Assembly (NCBI GenBank): GCA_963802945.1
Contig: CAWDKY010000030.1
Location: 241,046-305,045 of the forward strand
Length of the DNA stretch: 64,000 nt
Source: an uncultured delta proteobacterium
Lineage (GTDB): Bacteria; Desulfobacterota; RBG-13-43-22
Reading direction: 5' to 3'
Shown here in pieces: positions 11,485 through 36,275 of the stretch. Numbering within the stretch: position 1 is the stretch's first letter; the number at the start of each line of letters is the position of its first letter. Position numbers and translations under genes: made by a program. The notes below the pieces were generated by a model. The model was not told where the DNA came from and made no database searches. It saw nothing but the letters and a program-made list of their open reading frames with translations.

Positions 11485-11553
11485 GGCTTTGATCTCAAGG
11501 AAAAGCAGGACCGATATTCCATAAAAGGTGCGAAAAGGGAGAAAAGGAAGTAA
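11485..11553 (+). pseudogene. ORF6N C-terminal remnant
   Basis: GFDLKEKQDRYSIKGAKREKRK* matches the end of 26644-27210. Confidence 0.8.
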
Positions 11554-11661
11554 CATCATAAGGGATTGAGAAGGGTTAGGTACTCAGAAACAGTTGGAAA
11601 GATGAGGGGGAATCAGTGAATCCAGTGGACAACGCCCCTTCCATCATGAGGAGAATTAACC

Positions 11662-12294
11662 ATGATCCAATCGACAAATCGAAGGGCAAAAAAAATTATT
11701 GTTGTGATCCTGGGGCTGGTTGCCGCCCTAGGCCTGACCTTTTGGTTGAAGTGGGTATCCGCGGAAACCAGGTCCCTCAAAAACGATAGAACTATCGAAT
11801 CCAAGGGGAACCTTGATAGGGCTTTCGAAACAGTCCGAAAGGTGCTCCAGAGTCCCCGTTGTCAGAACTGTCATATCCCGGGAGATGCCCCACTCCAGGG
11901 TGATCTCGGTAAAGTCCATGTTATGGATGTTAAACGGGGGGAAGACGGTCGAGGGAAGACGGACTTGCGGTGCACCGACTGCCATCAAAGTAAAAATGGA
12001 AGCCTGCCTCATACACCGCCGGGTGCCGTTGATTGGCGTTTACCCTCCCCTTCCACTCCCATGGTTTTTATCAAGCTGTCGGCCAATGAATTGTGCAGTA
12101 ATTTGAAGAACCCCGCCAAGAATGGGGGAAAAACGCCCGGCCAATTGATAGATCATATCTCTAAAGACCGATTGGTTCTCTGGGGATGGGCCCCCGGGCC
12201 GGGCAGGAAAAAGCCGCCTGTCTCCCATAAGGAATTTGTGGCTGCTTTTTCTAAATGGGTGCGTGCCGGTATGCCCTGTCCAAAAAACCGTTAA
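11662..12294 (+). CDS. Exported diheme c-type cytochrome-like protein
   Basis: N-terminal hydrophobic segment; two CxxCH motifs (CQNCH, CTDCH); WGWAPGPGR. Confidence 0.75.
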
Positions 12295-12337
12295 CGTTTT
12301 AGGAAATGGGGTTTTTGTTTTTGGGGAAAAAAGGAAT

Positions 12338-12893
12338 ATGGATTTTGATTTAACCGTTATCCCTGCCGAGAGAATTGAGCAGGCCATTTTTCTGATTCGT
12401 GGACTTCGGGTTATGATTGACGCCGACCTAGCTATGCTTTATGGAGTGACAACGAAGGTCCTCAATCAGGCTGTCAAACGCAACAAGGATCGTTTTCGGG
12501 AGATTTCATGTTTCAACTGACTGCGGAAGAAAAAATGGAGGCGGTCACAAATTGTGACCACCTTTCCCGGCTTCGCTTTTCACCAGTCCTCCCTTATGCC
12601 TTTACCGAGCATGGCGTCCTTATGCTTGCCAATATTTTAAACTCGGACCGCGCTGCGCGGGTTAGTGTTCAATTGTCCGTACCTTGGTACGATTGCGAGA
12701 AACATTGTCCACCCATGCTGATCTGGCCAGAAAAATCACCGAGATGGAAAAGAAGTATGATGCTCAGTTCAAAGTGGTTTTTGACGCCTTGCGGGCCTTA
12801 ATGGCTCCGCCACTGAAAACGAAACGAAAGATCGGCTTTGATCTCAAGGAAAAACAGGCACGATACAGCACAAAGAAACCTTCGCGAAAATAG
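12338..12893 (+). pseudogene. ORF6N-domain DNA-binding protein, copy 1 (two frameshifts, possibly read errors)
   Basis: [21 protein letters not shown]...NQAVKRN / FQLTAEE..VTNCDHL..PYAFTEHG / [21 protein letters not shown]. Confidence 0.85.
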
Positions 12894-13046
12894 GAGGTGT
12901 TGACTTTAACTGTTTGTTGTTTACCCTCGAAGTACCGCAACGTATGCAACAACGCCCCCCATGTCAACCTAATTTGGTTTTGTATCAGCATCCTCCTTTT
13001 ATATTTTATGTAGACTCTTGACACAGGATACGTTATAAGGCCCGCC

Positions 13047-13994
13047 ATGAGTTTGACGACAAAATTTATCATATTTCAGGCCATGATTATTGTGCCTTTT
13101 GTCCTTGGGTCATTGACCAAGGAACGCTTTTCCAATCAGACCGGTTTTAGCAAGAAGCTCGTCAGGATAAACCTTATCTGCATTGAGCCTTTAATCGTGC
13201 TCTGGAGCATTTGGGGAATCTCGCTCAAAAGTAATCTTGTGTTCTTACCCGTATTCGGCCTGGCTTTTGTCCTTACAGGAATGGCGATAGGGAAGATTTT
13301 TATCCCTGTTCTTGGCCTCTCAGGAAAGAAAAAAGCTACCTTTCTCATCAGTTCATCTCTGGCTAATCACGGGTTCACCATGGGTGGTTTTCTGTGCTAT
13401 CTGCTTTTGGGCGAGAAAGGGCTCGGGCTTTCTTTCATATTCATCTCCTACTTTATGCCCTACATATTCCTGGTCATATTTCCATATGCATCACTGGCCT
13501 CGACGCCTGCCCGATATGATAGGCGATTTGTCAAAGATTTTTTTACCAACATTCAGAACATGCCATTATATGTATTTTTCTTTGCCCTGGCTCTTCAGGG
13601 GTGCGGACTTAAAAGGCCGGAAATATTTTTCCCCATTGACATCCTGCTTATGATCGCTATTGCCTTGTATCATTTTTCCCTTGGCATCAATTTTGAGTTT
13701 AAAGAAGTCCTCTCTTCCTGTAAAGAAAATACAGCACTCGGCCTGATTAAATTTTTTATCATTCCCATGATCACCTTCCTGGTATTACGATGGGTAGCCA
13801 TTGATCCTCAGATAGAGGGAGTGATCATGCTTCAATCATTTATGCCTACGGCCGTTTATTCAGTGATGGCCCCTGTGCTCTATGATCTTGATGCCAAGCT
13901 GGCCTCATCTATGTTTGTGGTCAATACGCTCATTTTCCTCATGGTCGTGCTGCCGATAGTATTCATGCTCAAAACAAGCCTATTAGGAATGTAG
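13047..13994 (+). CDS. AEC (auxin efflux carrier) family transporter
   Basis: Multi-TM; ANHGFTMG, KFFIIP, QSFMPTAV. Confidence 0.8.
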   Translation: MSLTTKFIIFQAMIIVPFVLGSLTKERFSNQTGFSKKLVRINLICIEPLIVLWSIWGISLKSNLVFLPVFGLAFVLTGMAIGKIFIPVLGLSGKKKATFLISSSLANHGFTMGGFLCYLLLGEKGLGLSFIFISYFMPYIFLVIFPYASLASTPARYDRRFVKDFFTNIQNMPLYVFFFALALQGCGLKRPEIFFPIDILLMIAIALYHFSLGINFEFKEVLSSCKENTALGLIKFFIIPMITFLVLRWVAIDPQIEGVIMLQSFMPTAVYSVMAPVLYDLDAKLASSMFVVNTLIFLMVVLPIVFMLKTSLLGM

Positions 13995-14072
13995 AGGTAA
14001 TTCGGAAATTCCATATGGGGATTTAAGAATCTCCATGGAAAGGAAGCGGGACTGGATGCAAAGGGATTCACC

Positions 14073-14408
14073 ATGAAAAGAAAGACCAATTTTGATTTAT
14101 ACTTGGAAGAACAATTAAGAGATAAAGCCTTTGCCGCCCGTTTTAAAAAGGCCGGTGATGCCTGGGAGGTGGCCATGAAATTGGCCTCCCTGCGCAAAAA
14201 ATCAGGTTTATCCCAAAAAGAATTGGCCGAAAAAGTGGGAACATCCCAACAACAAATCAGCCGTCTGGAATCGCCGTCTTACGAAGGCCATTCTTTAAGC
14301 ATGTTGCGGCGCGTGACTGAGGCTCTGGGCGGAACGATTCATTTAGAGATTTATTACAAAAAGCAAACAAAGCCTTTGGCAGCGGCTGAAAGGAAAACAC
14401 CTTACTGA
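14073..14408 (+). CDS. XRE-family HTH protein, HigA-like antitoxin without an adjacent toxin
   Basis: LSQKELAEKVGTSQQQISRLE; N-terminus TNFDLYLEEQLRD. Confidence 0.85.
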   Translation: MKRKTNFDLYLEEQLRDKAFAARFKKAGDAWEVAMKLASLRKKSGLSQKELAEKVGTSQQQISRLESPSYEGHSLSMLRRVTEALGGTIHLEIYYKKQTKPLAAAERKTPY

Positions 14409-14444
14409 AAAAGTTGAACTCCCTCCCGGACAATCAGTATAAAA

Positions 14445-14571
14445 GAGTCATAATCCCAAGAGGATTGAAAGATTTCCGGAAAATTTTATGTTTTTCAGGC
14501 CGCCAAGGGTGAAATGGAATCTTCTTTGAAATCACAATTGGTGATTTCAAGTTAAGCAAAAGCGAAAATAG
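14445..14571 (+). pseudogene. Internally deleted ORF6N remnant retaining the palindromic segment
   Basis: RFPENFMF...SLKSQLVISS followed by GCGAAAATAGGAGTTG, the ORF6N 3' end. Confidence 0.65.
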
Positions 14572-14776
14572 GAGTTGTTGACTTTAACCAATTGATATAT
14601 TCTAAAGTATCCGTTCAAATGAAAGGCGAAGGAGTTTAACCCTTTGAATCCTCGAATCCTTGGCTCTGCTCGGCTCAGCTCGCCGCAAGCCTTGAACCCT
14701 GTTTTTCTTGAGGCTGGCCTAGGAAGCAGTCCTCTAACACCCCCATTTCTTGAAAAAAGAAATGGGGGTTCGTTTT
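14571..14776 (+). repeat. Repeat A, type-B leader plus terminator (copies also at about 19354-19563 and 22796-22998; partial 22110-22223)
   Basis: Near-identical GTTGACTT..ATATATTCTAAA.TATCCGTTCAAATGA...CTCGCCGCAAGCCTTGAACC...AGCAGTCC..CCCCATTTT..ATGGGG. Confidence 0.9.
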
Positions 14777-14899
14777 GAGGTGAATAATAAAAAGGAATAA
14801 ATCAAAAATAATCGGACCATGGGAAACGATAAGTTGTTTTAGGACCAAGGTCCCCTTCAACTATGAATTCAAAAACCATTTGGAGCAAGGAGGAAGGTA

Positions 14900-16450
14900 A
14901 TGAGTAAGCAGGCAGCTCTTAATGAGCTAAAAAGGCGTAAGGAAGTAACTCAGGCCTTAGGCGGACCAAAGGCCATTGAGAGGCACAGACAAAGAGGACA
15001 TCTGACCGCCAGGGAGCGGCTTGATAAATTGCTGGATAAGGGATCATGGCGGGAGATAGGAGAACTCGAGCAGTTTGTCGGACCGGATGGTCAGGAATAT
15101 CATGTCAATAAAATTCACGGATACGGCAAAATAAACGGTCGGATTGTCATCGTTCAGACTGATGACAGTACCATTCTGGCAGGGACAGGAGCCCCTAGTG
15201 TGTCAGGCCTGTCGCGGAAGAAAGGTCTTCACGACGATTTGCTGCCGGAAAGAAACTTCCCTTATATCAGGCTCGGTGAGAGCGGTGGTGTGCATCTACA
15301 AAGCGTCATGGGCTCCACCGGCGTGCTGGCTATAACCTACCCGGCCACGAGGTTACTCTATCCGCGACGCGTACCCAGGGTAACCGGTATTATGGGTTTA
15401 TGTTTCGGAGACCCAACCTGGCAAGCCTCCATATCCGACTTTGTGGTACAGGTTAAAGGGACCTGCATGGCTGTTTCCGGTCCACGCGTCTTGGAAGTGG
15501 CCTTAAGTGAAAAGATCTCCCCCGAAGAGCTGGGCGGCTGGAAGCTGCACGCGGAAGTGACCGGACAGGTGGATGCCTTTGCTGAGGACGATGAACACTG
15601 CCTGCAGATCATCCGGGAATATTTATCCTACATGCCCTCCCATTGCGATGAGGAGCCGCCCTACGTGACAACGGAGGATCCACCTGACCGCAAAACTGAA
15701 AAATTGATGGATATTATTCCGGATGTGTCCACCAGGGCTTATGACATGACCAGGGTAATCAAGGATATGGTGGATGACGGGAAAATTTTTATCCTGAAGC
15801 CCTTTTTCGGCAAAGCCCTTATCACCTGCCTGGCCCGCATGAACGGTCGAGTGGTAGGCATTCTGGCCAACCAGGTCCTTTATAATGTGGGTGCGGCCGG
15901 GGATCAGGAATGTGAAAAAGCCACCAGTTTTATAGTCCTTTGCGATTCCTTCAATATTCCGATCATCAATTTGTCGGACACCCCCGGTTTTTTAGTCGGC
16001 AAGGAAGCTGAACGCAATAAAATTCCATCTATGATCATGAATTGGATGGAGGCCCTGGCCCTGGCCACTGTGCCCAAGATCACGGTCATTATCCGTAAGG
16101 CCTACGGTATGGGTATTTCCAATATGGGCGGCCCGAACTGCGGGGCCGACTTTATCGCCGCCTTGACCACGGCTGAAATAAGTTTCATGTCTCCGGAAGC
16201 GGCGGCCAACGTGGTTTGGGAGCGAAAAATCGCTGAGGCTGAAGATCCGGAAAGGGAAAGAAAAAGACTGATCGAAGAAATGCAATACGGGAGTGCTCCC
16301 TGGCAGGCCGCTACTGACGGTTGGCTGGACGAGGTATTGGATCCCAGAGATTTGCGGACCTGGGTAATCGAGCGGCTGGAAATCATGCACAGCCGTAAAA
16401 ATGGTTTTATGAGTCAGAAGAAATTGCAGGATTGGCCAACCGGCTTTTAA
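14900..16450 (+). CDS. Acyl-CoA carboxylase carboxyltransferase subunit
   Basis: ARERLDKLLD, DTPGFLVG, IIRKAYG. Confidence 0.9.
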   Translation: MSKQAALNELKRRKEVTQALGGPKAIERHRQRGHLTARERLDKLLDKGSWREIGELEQFVGPDGQEYHVNKIHGYGKINGRIVIVQTDDSTILAGTGAPSVSGLSRKKGLHDDLLPERNFPYIRLGESGGVHLQSVMGSTGVLAITYPATRLLYPRRVPRVTGIMGLCFGDPTWQASISDFVVQVKGTCMAVSGPRVLEVALSEKISPEELGGWKLHAEVTGQVDAFAEDDEHCLQIIREYLSYMPSHCDEEPPYVTTEDPPDRKTEKLMDIIPDVSTRAYDMTRVIKDMVDDGKIFILKPFFGKALITCLARMNGRVVGILANQVLYNVGAAGDQECEKATSFIVLCDSFNIPIINLSDTPGFLVGKEAERNKIPSMIMNWMEALALATVPKITVIIRKAYGMGISNMGGPNCGADFIAALTTAEISFMSPEAAANVVWERKIAEAEDPERERKRLIEEMQYGSAPWQAATDGWLDEVLDPRDLRTWVIERLEIMHSRKNGFMSQKKLQDWPTGF

Positions 16451-16541
16451 ATGAATCCGCAAAGACTGAAGTCGTCGGCGTCTGGCCGATCGATCTCAGA
16501 AGATCCAGTTAATTACACGGAATCATCGTAGGAGGAGACAC

Positions 16542-17489
16542 ATGGAAAAACGCAAACTGGGAAATTCGGGATTGGAGATTGCCCCATTGGTTTTAGGTGG
16601 CAACGTATTCGGCTGGACTGCAGATGAATCCATGTCCTTTAAAATTATGGATGCCTTCATCGCGGCAGGATTCAACCTCATTGATACGGCGGATGTCTAT
16701 TCGCTGTGGGTTCCCGGTCATAAGGGCGGGGAGTCCGAAGCCGTTATTGGCAAGTGGCTGAAACAAAGAGGGAAAAGGACGGATGTGCTCATTGCCACCA
16801 AAGTCGGGATGCCGATGGGACCCGATAAGAAAGGATTATCGAAAGCCTATATTAGACGCGCCGTGGAAGATTCGCTCCAACGCCTGCAGACGGATTATAT
16901 CGATCTCTATCAGTCGCATACCGATGACCAGGACGCCCCCCAGGAAGAAACTTTAATTACTTATACACAACTGATCAAAGAAGGGAAGGTGAGGGCGATT
17001 GGCGCTTCGAATCACAGCGCAGAAAGGCTGGCCCGGGCACTGCAGATCAGTGAAGAGCATGGATTGGCCGCCCATCAGACTTTACAGCCTCTTTATAACC
17101 TCTATGACCGGGCCGGATTCGAAAAGGATCTCGATCCCCTCTGCCGTGAAAAAGGTCTGGGTGTGATCAGCTACTATTCATTGGCCAGCGGATTTCTCAC
17201 GGGCAAGTACCGATCGGAAAAGGATTTTACGAAAAGCCCCCGGGGACAGGGGATGAAACGTTTTCTTAATGACCGGGGATACAGGATTCTGGAGGCACTG
17301 GATCAAGTGGCCGGCCAGTATGGCGCTACTCCCGCGACCGTGTCGCTGGCCTGGATGCTCAAAAAGCCCGGCCTGACGGCCCCGATTGCCAGCGCCACTA
17401 GTCTGGAACAATTGAGCGAATTACTTAAAGCCCCTGGGCTTGATCTTGATAAGAATTCGATTGAATTGTTGAACCAGGCCAGTTCCTGA
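16542..17489 (+). CDS. Aldo/keto reductase
   Basis: GGNVFGWT, DTADVYS, DYIDLYQSH. Confidence 0.93.
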   Translation: MEKRKLGNSGLEIAPLVLGGNVFGWTADESMSFKIMDAFIAAGFNLIDTADVYSLWVPGHKGGESEAVIGKWLKQRGKRTDVLIATKVGMPMGPDKKGLSKAYIRRAVEDSLQRLQTDYIDLYQSHTDDQDAPQEETLITYTQLIKEGKVRAIGASNHSAERLARALQISEEHGLAAHQTLQPLYNLYDRAGFEKDLDPLCREKGLGVISYYSLASGFLTGKYRSEKDFTKSPRGQGMKRFLNDRGYRILEALDQVAGQYGATPATVSLAWMLKKPGLTAPIASATSLEQLSELLKAPGLDLDKNSIELLNQASS

Positions 17490-17648
17490 CCTCAGGTCCC
17501 GTTTTGATCTCGAAGAGAAACAAGCCCGGTATGGCTTTTCCCTAACATCTTATCACTGACATCTTCCTCTGCTTTTTATCCTAAGGGATATCAGTCAGTT
17601 ATTCACTAACATCTTTTTACTGATATCTTCTTGCTCTTTATGCGGGGG

Positions 17649-18003
17649 GTTGACTTTAATTTTTAACAGGTTTAATAAGTTATATTACCTTAGCTTCATA
17701 ACTATAAAGCGAATAGCCGTCAACAGGCCTAACCGCTGTTCGCCGAACAACGAACGATCCGGCTTCCATTCGATCGGCTTTGCCGATCTCAGGGGGAGAC
17801 TCCCTGAAGGGAGTCGGACAGGGAGCCTCTTTTGAAGCCCGGCATATCTGCTCCTAACTGGGAGCCTTTTCAAAAGCTCGACGAAGTCGAGCGGGTCCGG
17901 GCGGAACGAACTACGAACGACGAACGTTTTTAGTACCGAAAGGCGTCCATGAAGCAGTTCAACCAAACCCCATTTTTTTAAAAAAGAAATGGGGATTTTT
18001 TTT
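17649..18003 (+). repeat. Repeat A, type-A leader with a REP-like insertion, plus terminator
   Basis: TTGACTTTAA..GCTTCATA..AAAGCGAATAGCC-variable-CCGAAAGG..TCCATGAAGCAG..CCCCATTTT..ATGGGG. Confidence 0.9.
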
Positions 18004-18024
18004 ACAATCTCTCATTGAGATCTT

Positions 18025-18567
18025 ATGGAATCTTTAGTGCCAGTGGAGGTTATTGAAAAGAAAATATTTTTGATTCGAGGTCAAAAAGTTTTGCTGGATA
18101 GAGATCTTGCTGATCTCTATGATGTGGAAACCAGGGCGTTGAACCAAGCGGTTCAACGCAATATTAAGAGATTCCCGAATGATTTCATGTTTACTTTGAC
18201 CAGAGAGGAGATCATGAGGATATCACAAATTGTGACATCCTCCGACATTAAATTCTCCAAACAAGTTCGTGCTTTTACGGAGCAAGGCGTGGCTATGCTT
18301 TCCGGAATCCTGAATAGCGATCGAGCGATAGAAGTGAATATTCAAATTATGCGGGCTTTTGTAAAACTCCGGGAGATGATCGCTACTAATAAAGACCTGG
18401 CCCGGCGGCTGGATAATCTGGAAAAGAAATATGACAGCCAGTTCAAAGTGGTCTTTGACGCCCTGCGGGCTTTAATGTCCCCGCCGGCCAAAACCAAACG
18501 TAAAATAGGTTTTGATTTAAAGGAGAAGCAGGCACGGTACGGCATAAAGAAATCTTCGCGAAAATAG
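18025..18567 (+). CDS. ORF6N-domain DNA-binding protein, copy 2
   Basis: [51 protein letters not shown]. Confidence 0.92.
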   Translation: MESLVPVEVIEKKIFLIRGQKVLLDRDLADLYDVETRALNQAVQRNIKRFPNDFMFTLTREEIMRISQIVTSSDIKFSKQVRAFTEQGVAMLSGILNSDRAIEVNIQIMRAFVKLREMIATNKDLARRLDNLEKKYDSQFKVVFDALRALMSPPAKTKRKIGFDLKEKQARYGIKKSSRK

Positions 18568-18571
18568 GAGT

Positions 18572-18790
18572 TGTTGGCTTAACTGGTTAATAGGTTTATA
18601 AATAAATCACTTAAACCTGGCTTCATAAATATAAAGCGAATAGCCCTCAACAGTCAGCAGTCAGCCTAAGCCCTTTAGATTTTTCCTGACCGCCGATCGC
18701 TGATTACTGACAGCTCTAAACCAAAGGATCGTCCATGAAGCAGTCCCCCAAGACCCCATTTTTTAAAAGAGAAGATGGGGTTTTTGTTTG
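18572..18790 (+). repeat. Repeat A, type-A leader plus terminator
   Basis: Same conserved ends; heptamer-repeat middle. Confidence 0.9.
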
Positions 18791-18805
18791 CGGAGGAAAT
18801 TCTAA

Positions 18806-19354
18806 ATGGATTCTATAATCCCAGTAGAAGTGATTGGACGAAAAATTTTATTGATCCGCGGCCAAAAGGTGATGCTGGATGCCGATCTGGCAAAGCTTTA
18901 CGGGGTGACAACCAAGAGATTGAATGAACAAGTTAGGCGGAATCAGGGACGATTTCCTGAAGATTTTATGTTCCAATTGAGCTCTGATGAAAAAGCTGAG
19001 GTGGTCGCAATTTGCGACCACCTTGCCAAACTTAGATTTTCCCCTACTCTCCCCCATGCCTTCACTGAACATGGAGTTCTCATGGTTGCCAGTGTGCTTA
19101 ATACCACAAAAGCTATTGAAATTAGCGTCTTCGTTGTACGGGCTTTCGTTAAAATGCGGGAGATGGTTATCTCAAACAAAGAAATTGTCCGGCGGCTGGA
19201 TAATCTGGAAAAGAAATATGACAGCCAGTTCAAAGTGGTCTTTGATGCCCTGCGGGCATTGATGGCCCCGCCACTGAAAACGAAACGAAAGATCGGCTTC
19301 GACCTCAAAGAAAAACAGGCACGGTACGCCATAAAGAAATCTTCGCGAAAATAG
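18806..19354 (+). CDS. ORF6N-domain DNA-binding protein, copy 3
   Basis: [42 protein letters not shown]. Confidence 0.92.
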   Translation: MDSIIPVEVIGRKILLIRGQKVMLDADLAKLYGVTTKRLNEQVRRNQGRFPEDFMFQLSSDEKAEVVAICDHLAKLRFSPTLPHAFTEHGVLMVASVLNTTKAIEISVFVVRAFVKMREMVISNKEIVRRLDNLEKKYDSQFKVVFDALRALMAPPLKTKRKIGFDLKEKQARYAIKKSSRK

Positions 19355-19648
19355 GAGTTGTTGACTTAAACTAATTGATATATTCTAAATTATCCGTTCA
19401 AATGAGACGCATAGGAGTTTAACCCTATGAATCCTCGAATCCTTGACTCTGCTCGGCTGAGCTCGCCGCAAGCCTTGAACCATATTTTTTTGAGGCTGGT
19501 CCATTTAGCAGTCCGACAAGACCCCATTTTTTGAAAAAGAAGATGGGGTTTTTATTTGGAGGGAAGGTGACTCAGAAACAACGTCCCCGCCGGCAGACTA
19601 CAGAAAAAGATTGACAAAAAGATCAAATAAGTTATCATAATATTTATC

Positions 19649-19933
19649 ATGTTGATTTCGTACAAACCGCCATCTAACAAATTTGTAAAAAAACAGGCTA
19701 GGTCGTTTCAACTGGTAATCGAAGACGAGGTCGAAGCCGTCATTCAAAATCCGTTAGCCGGAGAGACCAAGAAGGGTGATTTGACCGGTTTCAGGATTCA
19801 TAAATTTTCTTTTCAGGGTCAAAAATTCCTCTTGTCTTATGTTATTCGAACCGAGGGAATCGTTTTTTTTACGATCGGCTCCCATGAAAATTTTTATCGG
19901 GAATTAAAAAAGTATTTAAAGGAGGTGGGTTAA
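19649..19933 (+). CDS. RelE/ParE-family toxin
   Basis: NPLAGETKKGDLTGFRIHKF...IGSHENFYRELK. Confidence 0.82.
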   Translation: MLISYKPPSNKFVKKQARSFQLVIEDEVEAVIQNPLAGETKKGDLTGFRIHKFSFQGQKFLLSYVIRTEGIVFFTIGSHENFYRELKKYLKEVG

Positions 19934-20242
19934 ATGATCACCGCCGAAAAAGTGTATAAAGAAATTTTGGATATGCAGGTCAAGGAGAGAGAAAAACTCT
20001 TCACCGTTATTGCCAGGAAGGGTTTTGAGAAAGATTCCTATTCCCACGAAGAGGTTTTCGGCGATATACGGGAATCTCCCTTTATACTCAGAGAAGCCGC
20101 CGAATATCTGGAAGTGGCCGAAATAACCCTGAGGCGATGGGTGCAATCCGGTCTCATTCCGTATGAAAAAGTTGGAAGGAATATCGTTTTCGATCCTGAT
20201 GAACTGAGGCGGGTTAAGAAATCAAAGACGAAAAAAAGATAA
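19934..20242 (+). CDS. Putative antitoxin with excisionase-like (HTH_17) domain
   Basis: Abuts the toxin stop codon; EAAEYLEVAEITLRRWVQSG. Confidence 0.75.
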   Translation: MITAEKVYKEILDMQVKEREKLFTVIARKGFEKDSYSHEEVFGDIRESPFILREAAEYLEVAEITLRRWVQSGLIPYEKVGRNIVFDPDELRRVKKSKTKKR

Positions 20243-20318
20243 AAAGCCAATTATCAAAAAAAAGAAGTTATCACTTCATCCCCAATTTCTTAACAAAGCA
20301 GGCAAAACCTTACCCGAA

Positions 20319-20380
20319 AGGCTGTCCATTAAGCAGTCCATCATGACCCCATTTTTTAAAAAAGAAGATGGGGTTTTGTT
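20319..20380 (+). repeat. Repeat A core (small hairpin plus terminator)
   Basis: AGGCTGTCCATTAAGCAGTCC..ACCCCATTTTTT..AGATGGGGTTTT. Confidence 0.85.
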
Positions 20381-20404
20381 TAAATAATTTTAATTGAGGT
20401 TCCT

Positions 20405-20734
20405 ATGAATTCTTTAGTGCCGGTGGAGATTATTGAAAAGAAGATTTTTTTAATCCGTGGCCTTAAAGTGATACTGGACACTGATTTGGCAGAGCTTTAT
20501 GGTGTTGAAACAAAATATCTAATTAAAGCGGTCAAGAGAAATCTTTTGCGGTTTCCTGATGATTTTATGTTCCAACTCAATAAAGAGGAATCTGAAAACT
20601 TGAGGTTCCATCTTGGCACCTCAAGTCAGTGGGGAGGACGGCGTTATTTTCCCTATGCCTTTACCGAGCAGGGGGTGGCAATGCTTTCCAGCATCCTAAG
20701 CAGTGACCAGGCTGTCAAAGCGAATAGCCTTTAG
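20405..20734 (+). pseudogene. ORF6N copy 4, 3'-truncated
   Basis: Normal N-terminal domain; sequence switches into the repeat-A leader at about 20717. Confidence 0.85.
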
Positions 20735-20875
20735 CCTTCAGCAGTCAGCCTGAGCCCTTTAGGTTTTTCCTGACCGCCGATCGCTGATTGCTGACAGCTC
20801 TAAACCAAAGGATCGTCCATGAAGCAGTCCCCCAAAACCCCATTTTTCTAAAAAAGAAATGGGGGTTTTGTTTTG
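20717..20875 (+). repeat. Repeat A, type-A leader (5'-truncated) plus terminator
   Basis: Near-identical to 18633-18790. Confidence 0.9.
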
Positions 20876-20915
20876 AAGTGGATAATAGAATGGGAGGCAG
20901 TCTTAAGATTGGGGC

Positions 20916-20960
20916 TTGATTTGTGATCCTATTTTGAGTACAATAGAACCCATTATGAGT
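20916..20960 (+). promoter_or_regulatory. MNT-HEPN promoter with a direct-repeat operator candidate
   Basis: TTGATT-N17-TACAAT; imperfect repeat CCTATTTTGAGTAC / CCCATTATGAGTAC overlapping the -10 and the ATG. Confidence 0.55.
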
Positions 20961-21551
20961 ACGAAACAAATTCGCGATAATCTCTCCATGGCCCTTTTCG
21001 GCAAGACCAAACGAGCCTTGCTGGCCTTGTTTTTTTCCAACCCGGAGGAATCCTTTTACCTACGCCAGATTGCCAGGATAACCGCTGCCGGTCAGGGATC
21101 TGTTCAGCGAGAGTTAAAAAAATTAGCCGAGGCCGGCATCATCGAGCGTATTGAACAGGGCCGACAGGTCTATTTCAGAGCCAAAAGTAACTGTCCCATT
21201 TTCGATGAGCTAAAGGGGCTGATATTAAAAACCGCCGGATTGGTGGAGGTGCTTCGATCCGCTTTATCGCCGGTGTCCGATAAGATCGATCTGGCTTTCG
21301 TATTTGGTAGTCAAGCCCGAGGGAAAGCCAAGGCTGCCAGTGACATTGATTTATTAATTGTCGGGAATGTCGATGAGCTTGAACTACATCGGTTGATCAG
21401 CCAGACAGAGGGGCAACTGAACCGCTCCATCAATTACACCTTTTTGACCGCTCAAGAGTTTAAAAAACGCAAAAAAGAAAAGGGGGGGTTTCTCTCAAGA
21501 GTCCTGGCAGGGGAGAAGATTTTCATTATAGGAGACGGGCATGGATCTTGA
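20955..21551 (+). CDS. wHTH plus minimal nucleotidyltransferase (MNT) antitoxin
   Basis: VFGSQARG..SDIDLLIVG; N-terminal HTH. Confidence 0.88.
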   Translation: MSTKQIRDNLSMALFGKTKRALLALFFSNPEESFYLRQIARITAAGQGSVQRELKKLAEAGIIERIEQGRQVYFRAKSNCPIFDELKGLILKTAGLVEVLRSALSPVSDKIDLAFVFGSQARGKAKAASDIDLLIVGNVDELELHRLISQTEGQLNRSINYTFLTAQEFKKRKKEKGGFLSRVLAGEKIFIIGDGHGS

Positions 21552-21978
21552 GACACTCCTCAAAGAGGGACGAGTTCATCAGGAAAAAATATCGTCTCAA
21601 GAGATCCATAGGGCCTTGGCTAGAGCGGAAAGGGATTTAAAAACAGCGAGAAAAATAATGGCCGAGGACTGGGATTGGGGTTTCTCGATCACCTATAATG
21701 CCGTCCTCCAAGCTTCCCGGGCTTACATGTTTGCGCAGGGCTATCGCCCATCTCATGGAGAAGGTCATAAAAATACTTTCGCCATCATGAAAATCTTCAT
21801 GGGGAAAGAGTACGAGGACTTAATTTCCTATTTTGACCGCATGAGGAATAAACGAAATCAAGCTATTTATGATGTGGCCGGATTGATTACCGAAACGGAG
21901 GCCAGAAACCTATTTTCCAAAGCGACTGAATTTATAAAATTGATCCGCCGCAGTCTGACAGATAAAAATAGCGGCTAA
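21541..21978 (+). CDS. HEPN-domain protein (partner of MNT)
   Basis: Overlaps the MNT stop; YNAVLQASRA..GYRP..H..RNKRNQAIYD. Confidence 0.85.
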   Translation: MDLETLLKEGRVHQEKISSQEIHRALARAERDLKTARKIMAEDWDWGFSITYNAVLQASRAYMFAQGYRPSHGEGHKNTFAIMKIFMGKEYEDLISYFDRMRNKRNQAIYDVAGLITETEARNLFSKATEFIKLIRRSLTDKNSG

Positions 21979-22247
21979 TTTTTAGAACTTAGCTTTATTG
22001 ATTCCGGCAAACTGTTAACTAAACCCTCAAACTTACTTGTTGCGGACACCACTAATCATGAAAATAATTAATGGGGTTAACTGCCACGCCGTTCACTCCG
22101 CCTGCGGTCCTCGAATCCTCCTAAGCTCGTCGCAGGTCCTTGAATCCTGTTTTCCTGTTAAGACTGGTCCATGAAGCAGTCCGAAAAGCCCCCATTTTTT
22201 GAAAAAGAAGATGGGGATTTTTTAACCAATCTCTCATTGAGGATCTT

Positions 22248-22820
22248 ATGGAATCTTTAGTGCTCGTTGAGATTATCGAGAAAAAAATTTTATTGATCCG
22301 CGGCCAAAAGGTGATGCTGGATGCCGATCTGGCAAAGCTTTACGGGGTGACAACCAAGAGATTGAATGAACAAGTTAGGCGGAATCAGGGACGATTTCCT
22401 GAAGATTTTATGTTCCAATTGAGTCTGATGAAAAAGCTGAGGTGGTCGCAATTTGCGACCACCTTGCCAAACTTAGATTTTCCCCTACTCTCCCCCATGC
22501 CTTCACTGAACATGGAGTCTCTCATGGTTGCCAGTGTGCTTAATACCACAAAAGCTATTGAAATTAGCGTCTTCGTTGTACGGGCTTTCGTTAAAATGCG
22601 GGAGATGGTTGTGTCAAACAAAGAAATTGTCCGGCGGCTGGATAATCTGGAAAAGAAATATGATTCCCAGTTTAAAGTGGTCTTTGACGCCCTGCGGGCT
22701 TTAATGTCCCAGCCAATAAAGCCTAAGCGAAAAATTGGTTTTGACTTGAAAGAGAAGCAGGCCCGATACAGCATAAAGAAATCTTCGCGAAAGGAGGAGT
22801 TGTTGACTTTAACTAATTAA
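22248..22820 (+). CDS. ORF6N copy 5 (near-duplicate of copy 3 with compensating -1/+1 indels)
   Basis: DNA nearly identical to 18845-19250; indels near 22424 and 22519. Confidence 0.85.
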   Translation: MESLVLVEIIEKKILLIRGQKVMLDADLAKLYGVTTKRLNEQVRRNQGRFPEDFMFQLSLMKKLRWSQFATTLPNLDFPLLSPMPSLNMESLMVASVLNTTKAIEISVFVVRAFVKMREMVVSNKEIVRRLDNLEKKYDSQFKVVFDALRALMSQPIKPKRKIGFDLKEKQARYSIKKSSRKEELLTLTN

Positions 22821-23213
22821 TATATTCTAAATTATCCGTTCAAATGAGATGCATAGGAGTTTAACCCCATGAATCCTCGAATCCTTGACTCTGCTCGGCT
22901 GAGCTCGCCGCAAGCCTTGAACCCTGTTTTTTTTGAGTCTGGTCCATGAAGCAGTCCCCCAAAACCCCATTTTAAAAAAAAGATGGGGGTTTTGTTTTGG
23001 CGTGGATGATAAAAGAGAGTAGAATGCTTGGGTCAAATCAAAAACAATCGGACAAATGGGGAGAAATAAGTTGTTTTAGAACCAACGTCCCCTCTTAATG
23101 AAGCAACCGCACTAGGCCCCATTTTAAAAGAAGATAGGTTTTTGTTTTGGTTAAGGACAAAATTTAAACTGTTTCAGACCTGACTTCCCCCTTTACAGTT
23201 TATAATACAGGCC

Positions 23214-24044
23214 ATGATAGAAACCATCTTGGTGGGCAAGGTAGATGAATCCTTTCTTCTGGAGGTCCAAAAATGGGCGGAAGAGGTTGTTGGGAAAACC
23301 GAGCCCGGGACGGTCCCGGATCGTATTTCCGTTTACCTCTGGGAGAATGGAAACGATTTTAAGGAATTTGATGCCCGAGAAAAAGCCGAGTTGGGGGTAG
23401 TCACCGGTGATGAATCCAACTTTCTGGCCACCCACGAGGCCTGGAGGGGTTACCCTAGGATTCATATATCCCTGGAAAAGATCCAGGGAATTCCTGAAGA
23501 AGTCATCCAGGGCGTAGTTCAACATGAGATCGGCCACGCCCTGGTCCATGGTAAGCCGGAATTTTATCAATTTCTTTTTTCCGAACTGCTTCAGGAAACC
23601 GCTAGGTCGGCGGGACTGGATCTACCCCAGCTCCAGCAGTTGGTTTATTTGCTTTCCGTGGCTCTGAAAGACGAAGAAGTGGTCAGGCTATTAAGTGAAA
23701 GGGGATTAGGAATTTACCAAAATCGGGTACTGGAATATTTAATAGAAGATACGGGGGAGGAGCAACAGACTTGGGAACTGATTAAGGATATGCCGGCTCT
23801 GAGAAAATTAGCCTGGGCCGCTTTTTCAAAAACCCTTCTGCCGATTGAAACTTTGGCCGGATTGGGCGATCCGGAATCCAGTCCTCTGATAGAGCAATGG
23901 GAGAAGGCCTATTCCTGGCTCACCAACCGGGAAAGGACCGACCTAAGGGCTTATGCGCGGTTGGTCATTGAATTGCCCTCTAAAAATTTCCAGGATCGAT
24001 TGGAACAAGCCGTCTTGAGATTGATCAACAGCGCTTCACTATGA
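23214..24044 (+). CDS. Hypothetical protein with HExxH zinc-metallopeptidase motif
   Basis: QHEIGHALVH. Confidence 0.6.
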   Translation: MIETILVGKVDESFLLEVQKWAEEVVGKTEPGTVPDRISVYLWENGNDFKEFDAREKAELGVVTGDESNFLATHEAWRGYPRIHISLEKIQGIPEEVIQGVVQHEIGHALVHGKPEFYQFLFSELLQETARSAGLDLPQLQQLVYLLSVALKDEEVVRLLSERGLGIYQNRVLEYLIEDTGEEQQTWELIKDMPALRKLAWAAFSKTLLPIETLAGLGDPESSPLIEQWEKAYSWLTNRERTDLRAYARLVIELPSKNFQDRLEQAVLRLINSASL

Positions 24045-24163
24045 AATGAACTGGAACTCTGTGTATATCTGAGAGTTGACCCAGGCCCGATATGGCATAA
24101 GGAAAGTACGGGGAGTTGGAAAGCGGTTGGTTTAATTAGTATAGCGTCTCCGTACTTCCATTC

Positions 24164-24646
24164 TTAGTATCCCAATTCCTTTAATATTGAAGAAAGTCTT
24201 TGTAATCGCTCGCTGAGTAGTTCATCATCATTGCTTAACGCTTGCTGAAATAATTTTATATCCTCATCTATTTTGGGGTTGTCTGTACATACTGCTATTG
24301 TCATGGAATCGCCTTGCAGACCGACTCTGTCAATTACTGTTTTTTCAGAATCATAAAGTTTTGTATGACGATAAGCCTCTGAAGCAAAATACTGTTTTGC
24401 TCTGCAAACAAAAATTGCAAGATCAAGCACACGGTGAAGGGGTAATTCTTCAGATTGCCTTGACCACTTTTCACCTGTATGTCTCCAAACTTTTGCTGAG
24501 ATATCAACGTTCCCCCTGTCATTCCATTGAGCCAAGCCTAATGAAAGCCCCTTGGCATCGGTCTTGTAAGCATATCGGCCATCAACATTTTCGTAATTTT
24601 CAGAAACAATAACAGGTTTATGTTTTAATATTGCTGGTATTTTCAT
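24164..24646 (-). CDS. Conserved hypothetical protein (DUF6530-like), AT-rich
   Basis: MKIP..LKHKPVIV..NYENVDG..DAKGLSLGLAQWNDRG..SAKVWR..EKWSRQSEELPLHRVLDL (recognised from memory). Confidence 0.65.
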   Translation of the reverse strand: MKIPAILKHKPVIVSENYENVDGRYAYKTDAKGLSLGLAQWNDRGNVDISAKVWRHTGEKWSRQSEELPLHRVLDLAIFVCRAKQYFASEAYRHTKLYDSEKTVIDRVGLQGDSMTIAVCTDNPKIDEDIKLFQQALSNDDELLSERLQRLSSILKELGY

Positions 24647-24789
24647 AATTTTAATATTCCTTTATGTAGTTATTTACTTGTGTAGTCAACTAATAGTTTA
24701 GTAAATAACTTATCATACTAATAACAAACCTGTCAAGCAAAAAAGTAATTGACTATTTTTAGGTTGCTCCCAAAAACAATTCCCTTGGG

Positions 24790-25018
24790 GTTGACTTTAA
24801 TTTTTAATAGGTTTAAATAAGTTATATTAACTTGGCTTCATAAACATAAAGCAAATAGCCTTCAGTATTCAGCAATTAGCCTGGATGTTTTTAAGGTTTC
24901 TTTGAACACCGAACTCTGAACGCTGAACGCCGAACGTTCCCAGAACCGAAAGGCTAGCCCATGAAGCAGTCCCCCAAGACCCCATTTTTTTGAAAAAGGA
25001 GATGGGGTTTTTGTTTTG
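24790..25018 (+). repeat. Repeat A, type-A leader plus terminator
   Basis: Conserved ends; middle with (C)TGAACG-type heptamers. Confidence 0.9.
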
Positions 25019-25315
25019 GGGCGGAAGCAGGGCCATTTACTTGAATGATTTTTTAGTTGGGAAATAAGGGTTGGGGTTCGACCATAGACAGCCCTATTTT
25101 CATGTCCCGGCTTCCGATCCGCTCGGTCCGCTCGACCTGGCCGACTAGTGGTGTCAAGACCTGCCTTGTGCAGGCATACGCCCCTGGCGGGGCATGACTG
25201 TTCAAAAGGCAATTTAGTCAGCAGCGTCCGGGACAGCAAGGAATCCGGCATTTTGTTTACATTTAAGATTTGCCCCCTGGATCTATGAAAGTCAACCCAA
25301 TTAAGGGAGGGAAAA

Positions 25316-25753
25316 ATGGAAAAATTGACCTTTGAATTCGTGAATCCGGGGGATGTCCTTCCTCCATTCATCCGATCCGTCAGTCAGGAAACCTTTTGGA
25401 AATACGCCGTGGCCTCTTTCGATTATAACCCTGTCCACAATGATCCTGAATGGGTCAAAACGGCCCAACCCTTTAAAATACCTTTTACGGTGGGGCATGG
25501 TATGATGACTATGTCTTTTATGACCTCTCTGGTTACCAACTGGGCCTTACCGTCCATGCTTCAGGTTCGGAAGATTGTTTCTAAATTTACTCGGCCGGTT
25601 GAGCAGGGATGGGAAATTATCTGCACCGGAGTTGTCTCGGAAAAGCACTTTATCGCCAAAGGGAAAAACTATGTGGTGGTGGATGTCAAAGCTGAAAATC
25701 GGCAGGGTGACTTGCTGGCCCTCAGTGAAATCGAAGTGGTCTTTCCCGATTGA
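25316..25753 (+). CDS. MaoC-family dehydratase
   Basis: YAVASFDYNPVHND, GHGMMT. Confidence 0.88.
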   Translation: MEKLTFEFVNPGDVLPPFIRSVSQETFWKYAVASFDYNPVHNDPEWVKTAQPFKIPFTVGHGMMTMSFMTSLVTNWALPSMLQVRKIVSKFTRPVEQGWEIICTGVVSEKHFIAKGKNYVVVDVKAENRQGDLLALSEIEVVFPD

Positions 25754-25810
25754 GACCGGGGGTTTTATCGATTGGATCAATTTCGAGATTCAAAGAAAGG
25801 AGAATGAACC

Positions 25811-26389
25811 ATGAGTCATGCCGATTTAGCCAAATATTTCAAAACAGAAAAGCAGCTCAAATTCAGCACCGATTTTTTTACCGATGCCGAAAACTATGAA
25901 GTTTGGGATGAAATTGATTTTTCCGATCTACAAGAAGTTGACGGTGAAAACACCTTTGAAATAAAGGCCGAAGACATCAAATTTTACGCCGAAGGAGGCC
26001 TTGACGACAACCCGCTGATGAATGACGAGGAATACGCCAAGAAATCATCCTACGGCGGGCTGGTGGCCCACCCGATTTTTATAACCTCCATCTGTTTTTG
26101 GTGTGTGGGCGTCAAGGGGAAGGGAAATTGGATCAGAACGCCCGGGGCGAGAAACCCTGGTCAGGTTTTGGAAATCTATGAATATTTCAAAGTCGGAGAA
26201 ACCATTCATGTAACAATGAAGCCCCATGACCGCTATATCAAACGGGGTAAATGTTATCTCCAGTATCAAATGAACGCCTTTAACCAGGATAATGTTTTGA
26301 AATGCAGAATGTTTGCCACCCTGATCCTGCCTCGGACACGCCAGGATATAGGGAAATTTCTTAAAGGCATCCGCGGTCTAAGTGATTAG
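25811..26389 (+). CDS. MaoC-like hotdog-fold dehydratase partner
   Basis: IKFYA..DDNPLMNDEEYAKKSSYGGLVAHP. Confidence 0.8.
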   Translation: MSHADLAKYFKTEKQLKFSTDFFTDAENYEVWDEIDFSDLQEVDGENTFEIKAEDIKFYAEGGLDDNPLMNDEEYAKKSSYGGLVAHPIFITSICFWCVGVKGKGNWIRTPGARNPGQVLEIYEYFKVGETIHVTMKPHDRYIKRGKCYLQYQMNAFNQDNVLKCRMFATLILPRTRQDIGKFLKGIRGLSD

Positions 26390-26402
26390 CCAAGAAACCG
26401 GA

Positions 26403-26463
26403 AGGATGGTCCTTGAAGCATCCTATAATACCCTATTTTTTGAAAAAGAAGATGAGGTTTTTT
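26403..26463 (+). repeat. Repeat A core with compensatory stem changes
   Basis: GGATG-GTCCTTGAAG-CATCC followed by a terminator-like hairpin. Confidence 0.8.
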
Positions 26464-26483
26464 AGTCACAATTGGATGATGAG

Positions 26484-26599
26484 ATTCCAATTTGGAATAC
26501 CAAAAACGAGCGATGAACCAGTCGCAATTTGCGACCGGTTCCAAAAATAAGATTAGCCTGGGAGTTTGAGTCTTTGAGATCACAAATTGTGATCTCAAA
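26484..26599. repeat. Three free ORF6N-type palindromes
   Basis: 26484-26498 (7-1-7), 26515-26541 (13-1-13, one mismatch), 26573-26599 (13-1-13). Confidence 0.9.
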
Positions 26600-26643
26600 A
26601 TTAAAAGGGGATTAGTTAAAGAAGTCATTTGAAGAGGATCTTG

Positions 26644-27210
26644 ATGGAAAAAAAGGAGTTAATCCCGCAGGAAATCATTGAGGGCAAAATCTTCCTTATC
26701 AGAGGTAAAAAGGTCATGCTCGATCGGGATCTGGCTGTTCTTTATGGAGTTGAGACAAAGGTCATAAACCAGGCGGTCAAAAGAAATTCTCAAAGGTTTC
26801 CAGAGGATTTTATGTTCCAGTTGTCCACTGAGGAGACTCAGCAATTTTTAAGGTCACAATTTGTGACCTTAAAAAGAGGACAGCATTACAAATACTTACC
26901 TTATGTTTTTACAGAGAATGGTGTGGCCATGCTCTCCAGTGTCCTTAATACCGAGAGGGCAATCCAGGTCAATATTCAAATCATGCGAACCTTTACCCGG
27001 TTAAGGGAGATCATCGCCACTCATAAAGATTTGGCGCGGCGTCTGGATGACCTGGAGAAAAAGTACGATAGCCAGTTCAAAGTGGTCTTTGACGCCCTGC
27101 GGGCTTTAATGGCCCCTCCTGTTAAGCCAAAACGAAAAATAGGTTTTGATCTCAAGGAGAAACGGGCACGGTATTCCATAAAAGGTGTTCAACGGGAGAA
27201 AAGGAAGTAA
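26644..27210 (+). CDS. ORF6N-domain DNA-binding protein, copy 6
   Basis: [52 protein letters not shown]. Confidence 0.92.
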
Positions 27211-27267
27211 CGTTTTCTTCTGCTTTTCCACCGCCATCTTGCCACTAACACCTTTATTCGGGAGGGA

Positions 27268-27457
27268 TTGACTTTAATTTTTAATAGGTTTAAATAAGTT
27301 ATATTAACTTGGCTTCATAAAGATAAAGCGAATAGCCAACCGTTGATCGCCGAACGACGAACTACGAACGACAAACGTTTTTAGTACCGAAAGGCCGATC
27401 CATGAAGCAACCTACCAAGACCCCATTTTTTGAAAAAGAAGATGGGGTTTTTGTTTT
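27268..27457 (+). repeat. Repeat A, type-A leader plus terminator
   Basis: Conserved ends; short ACGAACT/ACGAACG middle. Confidence 0.9.
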
Positions 27458-27532
27458 GGGTTTGCTGATAAAAGAGAGCATTATTTTTGTTATAAAATAA
27501 ATGGGCGCTGTCCCTATTTAAAACCGAAAAAA

Positions 27533-35964: not shown

Positions 35965-36275
35965 TGAAACATGCCATTTGGCCTAAGGTAGTTACGGATC
36001 GGAATAGAAGGGCCGGTTCTCTTTTACATGTTGAGGTCGGGCCTGGCCAAGGGAATTAATCCTCAAAGAATTATCCAAGAAATGATGGGTAAAAAAGGCC
36101 TCATAGCCAACTTTTTACCCCCAAAAAGTAGCTTCTAAACATAAGATTTTTTACATTTGGCGAGACATTGTTGAATGTTTGTATTGGCATTTTATGGCCC
36201 GAACAGGCCTCGAAGAAATCGAACCGTTTTGAATTCGAAGTAGGCTAAAGGCCAAACGGATAAGAGTAAGGAGGA

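Follow-up and report, generated by a model that had tools for sequence, protein, structure and literature searches.

Promoter- and terminator-like repeat units between ORF6N and defence-associated genes in a variable region after cinA of an uncultured Thermodesulfobacteriota genome

The array and its repeated unit

The stretch of DNA considered here, called the window throughout, is 64 kb long and forms the end of a 305-kb contig in the genome of an uncultured delta proteobacterium (assembly GCA_963802945.1; 4.37 Mb in 72 contigs, 47% G+C, estimated contamination 6.7%). Between 11.4 and 27.5 kb it holds a 16-kb array in which six ORF6N genes, toxin-antitoxin pairs and a few metabolic genes follow one another with repeats between them, nearly all of the genes lying on the + strand (a DUF6530 gene on the - strand is the exception). 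A direct-repeat search of the window returned one element, in families of 10 and 11 copies. A preliminary description of this DNA had taken it for an expanding gene-capture platform whose backbone unit is the 3' end of ORF6N together with a leader and a terminator, and had named as cargo a carboxyltransferase, a RelE pair, an MNT-HEPN pair, an HExxH protein and a MaoC pair; the Pfam annotation of the cargo agrees with that list, and the unit is real and recurs genus-wide. As that description also held, no integrase or transposase family is present among the 73 open reading frames (ORFs) scanned with Pfam across the whole window.

The unit can be divided into five parts. It begins with the last 70-230 nucleotides (nt) of an ORF6N gene, which are much more alike among paralogues than the remaining gene, and continues right after the stop codon with a conserved promoter-like block, found after each ORF6N stop, in which the -35 hexamer TTGACT is followed after 17 nt by TAAATA or a similar sequence. 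A leader of 60-260 nt, of at least three 5' types (A, B and a short type C), leads to a 45-nt box with the consensus AAGGcTGGTCCATgaAGCAgtCC..CAAgA and to a hairpin of 11-16 bp with a U-run. The box and this putative intrinsic terminator, which is itself conserved in sequence, constitute the core, and we infer promoter and terminator activity of the units from these signals. A profile built from the core copies of this genome and searched with nhmmer recovered all 12 of the places at which copies had been reported in the window (hits at 14699, 17934, 18713, 19483, 20309, 20797, 22149, 22925, 23098, 24941, 26395 and 27383), all on the + strand, while the partial copy reported at 12301 corresponds to the 3' half of the terminator, as recovered in the direct-repeat family. 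A consensus scan finds eight of the 12 cores terminator-like (14739, 17968, 20345, 20838, 22190, 22965, 24976 and 27417). The 16-mer GTCCATGAAGCAGTCC, with up to three mismatches allowed, occurs 11 times in the window against 0.50 expected, a count that none of 100 shuffles reached, and nine of the 11 occurrences fall within 14717-24972.

Aligning 85 distinct copies, taken from this genome and from relatives, shows sequence conservation in the box and the hairpin but not in the leaders. Type A leaders contain 2.7-4.9 copies of 7-nt repeats (ACGAACG, TCAGCAG, TGAACGC, CGAACGA), located at 17906-17926, 18647-18665, 24903-24936 and 27351-27377, and in predicted folds these heptamers pair with a complementary run upstream. 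The core is not a coding sequence, because indels in its T-run shift the reading frame, and with it the stop, from copy to copy. Nor is an origin from the 3' end of a housekeeping RNA supported, all 25 of the genome's profile hits being intergenic units. The layout of a type III toxin-antitoxin system (RNA repeats of tens of nt, a terminator and a toxin) was not found either: type A leaders have only 7-nt repeats, and the units precede unrelated genes.

Many unit copies are followed by a second module of ~105 nt, M2, which starts inside the T-run of the terminator, carries a promoter-like TTGGGG/TTGGCG-17-TAGAAT site and ends with a predicted two-part hairpin. Across 40 distinct M2 copies, which precede unrelated genes, all similarity stops at one right edge, GTCCCCTC, within a few bases. 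The M2 profile has 15 hits in this genome. M2 also occurs alone, without a core, between genes on several contigs (C15 ~501900-517600, C15:455276, C34:108571, C49, C72 and C14); the cluster on contig C15 has five copies within 16 kb and adjoins a carboxyltransferase paralogue.

The ORF6N domain (PF10543) was found in six genes, as had been claimed, at 12340-12893, 18025-18567, 18806-19354, 20405-20734, 22248-22820 and 26629-27210, with E-values from 1e-21 to 5e-35. Two of the genes are in pieces and one (20405-20734) is truncated; 12340-12893 is split over two frames, and 22248-22820 matches just positions 1-62 of the 86 of the domain. Single frame breaks also split several ordinary genes (CoA-transferase, carboxyltransferase, FMN oxidoreductase, phosphoglucomutase and ArsA; window 10174-11375, 2380-4154 and 60215-61063, L165 10388-11739 and L171 5457-6495), which suggests indel errors in the assembly, and the breaks in ORF6N 12340 and 22248 may therefore be unreal. 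The remnants of ORF6N that had been noticed are likewise present as several 3' ends on the + strand, two of them found by profile (11485-11554 and 17501-17536) and two read from the sequence (14528-14575 and ~24060-24100).

By profile match, the ORF6N proteins appear to be members of the PADLOC candidate defence family PDC-S05, the three intact ones matching the family at 1e-54 to 1e-61 and its models PDLC04856, 04869 and 04849 with E-values of 1e-38 to 1e-61. According to Payne et al. (preprint 10.1101/2024.01.29.577857), a location inside known defence systems is what defines the PDC candidates. In E. coli, one PDC-S05 representative, described as a RhuM-domain protein, reportedly reduced the plating of phages T7 and T5 ~1,000-fold, and protection from phages is also reported for a PDC-M05 representative (preprint 10.1101/2024.09.26.614923). 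Since the active PDC-S05 representative is described with a RhuM domain, the ORF6N proteins of the array would be antiphage only if its activity carries over to them.

A further property of the ORF6N genes is a palindrome with an 11-bp stem, of the TCGCAATTTGCGA or TCACAATTTGTGA type, at 18998-19023, 22439-22464, 12538-12563 and 26855-26880, with leftovers at 14528-14550 and 26520-26600. It translates as V-A-I-C-D in ORF6N 18806 and as S-Q-F-V-T in ORF6N 26629, one DNA shape read in two frames, and it scores terminator-like on the - strand.

Read from left to right, and on the + strand unless stated otherwise, the array opens directly after the split CoA-transferase gene with an ORF6N 3'-tail remnant (11485..11554), which is 84% identical to the end of ORF6N 26629 and matches positions 156-202 of the tail profile. 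The terminator half-remnant, the two-frame ORF6N gene and the promoter-like block TTGACTTTAAC (12301..12906) are 88% identical over 603 nt to locus L157 of the nearest relative. By Pfam, a Mem_trans permease and an HTH_3 protein come next (13047..14408). A decayed ORF6N, reduced to its palindrome and last codons, joins unit U1 with a type B leader, a core and a predicted terminator at 14739-14769 (14528..14790), and an M2 module with its promoter-like block and hairpin ending GTCCCCT (14769..14857; profile match at C30:255814-255902) leads into the carboxyltransferase and aldo-keto reductase genes (14900..17489; Pfam). Between these two genes lies a 40-nt leftover of the 3' end of an unrelated gene (16462-16500), which matches a gene end in locus L013. 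A long-tail variant of the ORF6N-tail remnant and the type A unit U2 (~327 nt, with heptamers, core and terminator-like hairpin at 17968-17994) occupy 17487..18000, ahead of an ORF6N gene of 180 aa (18025..18567; Pfam 1.2e-30, PDC-S05 3.3e-54), the type A unit U3 (18580..18790) and an ORF6N gene of 182 aa (18806..19354; Pfam and PDC-S05), the last being 94.5% identical in nt to locus L152 of the nearest relative.

Unit U4, of type B and with the core variant ATTTAG (19345..19560), is followed by a cassette that combines a putative promoter of its own (19611-19638, matching the scan consensus at 11 of 12 positions), a ParE-like toxin, an HTH_17 protein, a short leader, a core and a terminator-like hairpin (19604..20381). 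An ORF6N gene cut off after its domain is fused at 20714 to the type A leader, core and terminator of U5 (20405..20875), after which come the MNT-HEPN pair (20916..21978; Pfam, PDC-M05A/B 8.7e-69 and 5e-28), 91% identical in nt to locus L019 of the nearest relative, and unit U6 (21985..22225), with a leader type shared with the locus after the pantothenate kinase gene. The ORF6N gene at 22248..22820 has an internal stretch in another frame, and the region of U7 (22787..23150) contains that type B unit, an M2 copy (22990-23095) whose promoter-like TTGGCG-17-TAGAAT site at 22997-23025 was picked up by the consensus scan, and a degenerate core with its terminator (23098-23150). The next block (23214..24646), 91.3% identical in nt to L019, comprises a gene for a 276-aa protein with no Pfam family, the remnant at ~24060-24100 and the DUF6530 gene (24164-24646, - strand). 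The type A unit U8 with its heptamers (24787..25020), a MaoC-like pair with a core and terminator directly after it (25316..26466, the latter at 26395-26466), two leftover ORF6N palindromes (26520-26600), an ORF6N gene of 193 aa (26629..27210; PDC-S05 1.3e-61) and the type A unit U9 at the right edge (27264..27466) complete the array.

Distribution, neighbours and turnover of the unit

The core profile has 25 hits in this genome, 12 in the window and 13 outside the array. Used as a DNA query, the unit matches 22 of the 61 genomes searched, with matches in 13 of 13 members of the genus, 18 of 20 of the family and, weakly, three of 40 genomes of other families, and most genus genomes have at least about a dozen matches. 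It was found in 27 stretches of metagenome contigs and had no match in viral contigs. Public records with a true core have titles naming Thermodesulfobacteriota or 'delta proteobacterium' genomes; a scan of the genome collection by a 16-nt pattern was too unspecific, giving 119 stretches and only seven loci with a real core by profile. Tandem arrays of ORF6N genes and units similar to this one are present in other genomes and in metagenome contigs. An even scatter of the repeat together with invariant cargo had been named beforehand as what would speak against a platform: the repeat is indeed scattered, more than half of its profile hits lying outside the array, but the cargo varies.

The genes beside the unit are largely those of defence and toxin-antitoxin systems. 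Outside the window, cores of this genome precede or bracket a PLD nuclease and a helicase, hsdR-hsdM, hsdM with a YhcG nuclease and an AAA_14 ATPase, ORF6N, HigBA and MazEF, and one ORF6N gene stands between hsdM and hsdS. Around the cores of relatives are found AbiEii, Fic, hsdMSR, type III mod-res, HepT/MNT, HigB and a few metabolic genes. The 24 metagenome contigs add SocA/Panacea, RadC, DUF4062, SNF2 with AAA_15, HigBA, ParE, MaoC and cinA, as well as a type I-C cas3-cas5d-csd1 operon near a core, and none of the 70 ORFs scanned in them belongs to an integrase or transposase family.

The comparison of related genomes suggested in the preliminary description does reveal turnover of cargo between units, and the breakpoints lie at the repeats, eight homology-block ends between the two closest genomes falling no more than 45 nt from a core edge. 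Synteny of SDR, AKR, ECH and cinA with five relatives stops directly after cinA, and in one metagenome contig cinA is followed by a core. The nearest relative has the carboxyltransferase cassette at 95.4% nt identity without the reductase; there, the gene is preceded by a different unit, with a toxin-antitoxin pair between the promoter and the 3' part of that unit, and is followed directly by the unit and ORF6N gene that sit 2 kb further on in the window. That relative also has the 276-aa gene and the MNT-HEPN pair in swapped order: in L019 the 276-aa gene comes first. Moreover, the ParE cassette, from its putative promoter through the end of its terminator, is 93.2% identical over 781 nt to a more distant member of the genus, whereas the flanking genes of that genome are only 78-84% identical. 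At the pantothenate kinase locus, this genome and its nearest relative are collinear (94%) as far as the terminator's last bases, beyond which they diverge, one having an ORF6N gene and the other a different gene; the gap after pantothenate kinase ranges from 0.17 to 9.4 kb across the nine genomes in which both flanks were found, and a core is present in it in five of the 12 genomes examined. Scars are visible as ORF6N tails, the 40-nt gene end at 16462-16500 and the truncated ORF6N fused to a leader.

The array had also been described as expanding, and this part of the description did not hold. The three array paralogues tested each have a closer counterpart (87-94% nt) in the nearest relative than in their own array, so that the array is not growing by recent duplication, and its paralogues, judged by these identities, are old and shuffled rather than recent duplicates. 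In the nearest relative, toxin-antitoxin pairs lie within a unit, between promoter and 3' box, at L152 1-1110 and L019 1500-2680, and the HigBA pair inserted in L019 is flanked by a direct duplication of ~70 nt of leader.

Recombination between units and its rivals

With about even confidence, we favour the reading that the units are recombination-prone regulatory cassettes, a chromosomal analogue of the promoter-early stem-loops (PeSLs) of phages, that organise a defence island. This island would have been assembled in the variable hotspot directly after cinA from six PDC-S05 ORF6N paralogues, the MNT-HEPN pair (PDC-M05), a ParE-type toxin-antitoxin pair and some metabolic genes, separated by lineage-specific cassettes in which a promoter-like block overlapping the ORF6N end, a variable leader, the 45-nt box and a presumably strong intrinsic terminator are often followed by M2 as a second promoter and hairpin module. 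Such cassettes would terminate the transcription of one gene block and start that of the next, and general recombination between their copies, homologous or by template switching, would delete, swap and reorder the blocks that lie between. It would act on the 60-300 nt of near-identical DNA that occur ~25 times per genome and in all relatives; we infer general and not site-specific exchange. Exchange of blocks could occur inside the array, between loci and after the uptake of DNA from relatives, and would leave ORF6N tails and other gene ends behind as scars.

PeSLs are described as repeats of T4-type phages that lie between non-essential genes (Arbiol et al., 2010, PMC2839356; Comeau et al., 2014, PMC4122927). 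The array units resemble, by sequence alone, these short composite promoter/terminator repeats of the phages' hyperplastic regions; in both, insertions, deletions and replacements among close relatives map to the repeats, and no dedicated recombinase is involved. Unlike PeSLs, the units reside in a bacterial chromosome, are longer (150-330 nt), with a variable leader and the conserved 45-nt box, and are joined to the 3' end of a single gene family, ORF6N, amid cargo that is mostly defence or toxin-antitoxin. Having no match in viral contigs, they are an analogue of the PeSL and not a member of that class.

Several points weigh against cassettes shuffled by general recombination. General recombination alone does not explain how unrelated DNA comes to be joined at the one exact point of M2, and the conservation of the 45-nt box and putative terminator across species, in sequence and not in shape alone, suggests a sequence-specific partner. 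Further, the main promoter candidate of the unit, TTGACT-17-TAAATA, fails the -10 rule of the consensus scan; the eight homology-block ends near core edges are a listing and not a statistic; and the window rests on one assembly with probable indel errors.

Part of this could be accommodated by a new site-specific cassette system, in which the units or the M2 hairpin ending GTCCCCTC would be the sites and the recombinase would lie elsewhere or have been lost, as in clusters of integron cassettes without an integrase. The co-orientation of the cassettes, the sharp right edge common to 40 M2 copies and the exact divergence at the edge of the core terminator past the pantothenate kinase gene all speak for such a system, which we nevertheless consider decidedly unlikely. 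True integron integrases (TIGR02249 above the cut-off) are present in six of 21 family genomes (G001, G002, G004, G007, G009 and G010; loci L219-L224, with two copies each in G004 and G007), and such enzymes thus circulate in the lineage. However, neither this genome, where TIGR02249 reaches ~80 bits against a cut-off of 265, nor its nearest relative has one; no core or M2 lies within 1.5 kb of the relatives' intI genes, and a link to integrons was rejected, as the DNA adjoining those genes has no core, M2 or any window repeat and has nothing in common with the arrays. None of the four tyrosine-recombinase hits (PF00589) in the genome, on contigs C29, C17 and C15, is beside a core copy, the 10 Y1-transposase hits are on other contigs or distant, and a recombinase was found beside none of the units examined in the window, this genome, relatives and metagenome contigs. 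The search for the repeat next to a recombinase or HUH gene elsewhere in the genome, proposed in the preliminary description, accordingly came back empty.

The attC sites of integrons have an inverted core pair, RYYYAAC ... GTTRRRY, 40-130 nt apart with a paired stem. In a crude test for this signature, which used our own regular expression and complementarity and not the covariance model of IntegronFinder, no R''/R' pair was found in 11.4-27.6 kb or in 27.6-51 kb, against 0-0.04 expected, and the stem polarity of M2 (GTTG...CAAC) is opposite to that of attC. The left borders are ragged, ORF6N-tail remnants beginning at several positions as decay and general recombination would give, and the cassettes carry promoter-like sites of their own. 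A 'left junction motif', TCCTGACyTCAkGTCCC, was considered as a recombination signal and proved to be an in-frame variant of the ORF6N tail, 27 nt (9 codons) long. A capture platform is therefore only partly supported: cargo does turn over among relatives, but there is no attC signature, no adjacent recombinase and no uniform left border. The missing attC signature and the ragged left borders, together with the lack of IntI in the genome, set the array apart from integron arrays and clusters of attC sites lacking integrases (CALINs), with which it shares co-oriented unrelated small genes (DUF6530 excepted), a repeated structured element between them, toxin-antitoxin cargo and the lack of an integrase nearby; its units, moreover, have predicted promoters and terminators, and promoter-like sites stand at 19611-19638 and 22997-23025. 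We give only a slim chance to the bolder proposal that the units are the working sites of an undescribed defence-cassette-exchange system in this Thermodesulfobacteriota family, in which the box with its terminator and the M2 hairpins would be recognised by a trans-acting protein that swaps promoter-equipped cassettes among ~25 docking points per genome without an integron integrase; the ORF6N DNA-binding proteins, in whose genes the palindrome is kept as DNA in two reading frames, might themselves play this part. The base-exact right edge of M2, the sequence conservation of box and hairpin, the heptamers and this palindrome, none of which the favoured reading explains, leave a site-specific or protein-guided mechanism a correspondingly low probability.

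That the unit is mainly a functional RNA, either a small RNA family or a conditional leader-terminator, which places ORF6N and defence genes under common control and whose dispersal is secondary, is in our view rather unlikely. The terminator-like hairpin lies 7-290 nt ahead of the next same-strand gene at 23 of the 25 profile hits, several 5' leader types share one 3' box, type A leaders have their 7-nt periodicity, and the predicted folds are more stable than those of shuffles (z -3.0 to -5.4, terminator included). Yet Rfam gives no family at the gathering score in the window, none in four further loci with units, and none in the array even at E up to 5. The core as an antisense RNA to ORF6N start regions was rejected, its complementarity to them averaging -13.8 kcal/mol against -18.4 for 400 control starts. 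A strict co-occurrence of core and ORF6N does not hold either, for three genus members with cores gave no ORF6N hit, and the ORF6N subfamily is present without a core in nine other families. A promoter-like module is, moreover, often downstream of the terminator, so that downstream genes need not depend on read-through. The helix 5' CUUCAU / 3' AUGAAG, which RNAfold closes in three type A copies, has no covariation in 88 copies; among the 34 of these with one clear upstream motif and one core form, the variants count 16, 4, 12 and 2, and this helix was dropped because the upstream CTTCAT/CTAAAT and the core ATGAAG/ATTTAG are not associated. RNAalifold returned no structure for 85 cores, which was ascribed to an alignment problem in the loop and from which no conclusion was drawn. 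A non-autonomous element of the miniature inverted-repeat transposable element type, inserting before genes with its own promoter and terminator, would fit the many dispersed copies, the defined ends of M2 and the Y1-transposase hits of the genome; it is very unlikely, given that the sites compared showed neither terminal inverted repeats nor target duplications (no systematic search for them was made), that no filled and empty pair differs by the unit alone, different cargo always accompanying it, and that no transposase was found adjoining a unit. Extremely improbable, finally, is an artefact by which repeats were collapsed or misjoined in a metagenome-derived genome: the number of contigs, the estimated contamination and the genes split by frame breaks would allow for it, but independent assemblies repeat the junctions, such as carboxyltransferase-unit-ORF6N at 94-95% identity, and other genomes and metagenome contigs have similar arrays. 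Among public sequencing runs, the best DNA run contains 13% of the sampled window words, and no RNA run was found.

Comparison with other known systems places the recombining regulatory cassettes further. Minimal mobile elements of Neisseria are differing whole-gene cassettes that are swapped by homologous recombination between constant flanking genes, and mosaic intergenic repeat arrays occur at variable loci of Neisseria. The array likewise has differing cassettes between the same conserved flanking genes; unlike in the Neisseria elements, its repeats lie inside the variable region, between cassettes, carry putative expression signals and are tied to ORF6N. It resembles the PDC defence genes embedded in restriction systems, with its matches of ORF6N to PDC-S05 and of MNT-HEPN to PDC-M05 and with ORF6N between hsdM and hsdS, and differs in its six paralogues in one row and their shared repeated regulatory unit, two features that literature searches did not turn up for these candidates. 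The c4 antisense RNA/antirepressor circuit of phage P1 (Rfam RF01695) also has a small terminator-ended unit before an ORF6N-family gene; the array unit differs in having no Rfam match, no excess complementarity to ORF6N starts and no covariation. Literature searches on ORF6N/KilA-N, defence islands, toxin-antitoxin systems, restriction-modification and intergenic terminators brought up no such arrays, the ORF6N papers listed being judged by title and opening abstract lines.

That defence islands are mosaics is known, but for the most part there is no explanation of how their parts are exchanged when mobile-element genes are missing. A whole bacterial family here provides a concrete candidate, defined by its sequence, for the joints of such islands: a unit that is found at genes for ORF6N (PDC-S05), at restriction systems, at a cas operon and at toxin-antitoxin pairs, and at whose edges breakpoints between close relatives fall. 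This provides a testable model, recA-dependent shuffling versus site-specific exchange. The unit could also serve as a marker, since genes that lie behind it in these uncultured anaerobes would be places to look for new defence functions, and the six diverged paralogues of one candidate defence protein constitute a set for studies of specificity.

Other tandem and repeat-punctuated rows

Tandem rows of ORF6N genes are not confined to this family: locus L186, from a genome of another family of the phylum, has three of them, with 3' ends 96% identical over 204 nt and no comparable promoter-terminator unit between them. The window itself has, at 28870-51000, a second and different row of co-oriented unrelated genes punctuated by repeats. 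Its genes include Pirin, thioredoxin, DUF488 (twice), radical SAM, ferritin and nitroreductase (twice), and its repeat families are GGGGTCGGACC... (8-9 copies) and TGCTTTTCTCCTTGCCCCGG... (7 copies); one repeat of this row contains CAACCAACGGCCC, which resembles the end of the M2 hairpin. The two DUF488 genes (30471-30770 and 36028-36327), taken with the repeat upstream of each, share 96% identity over 300 nt and lie 5.6 kb apart.

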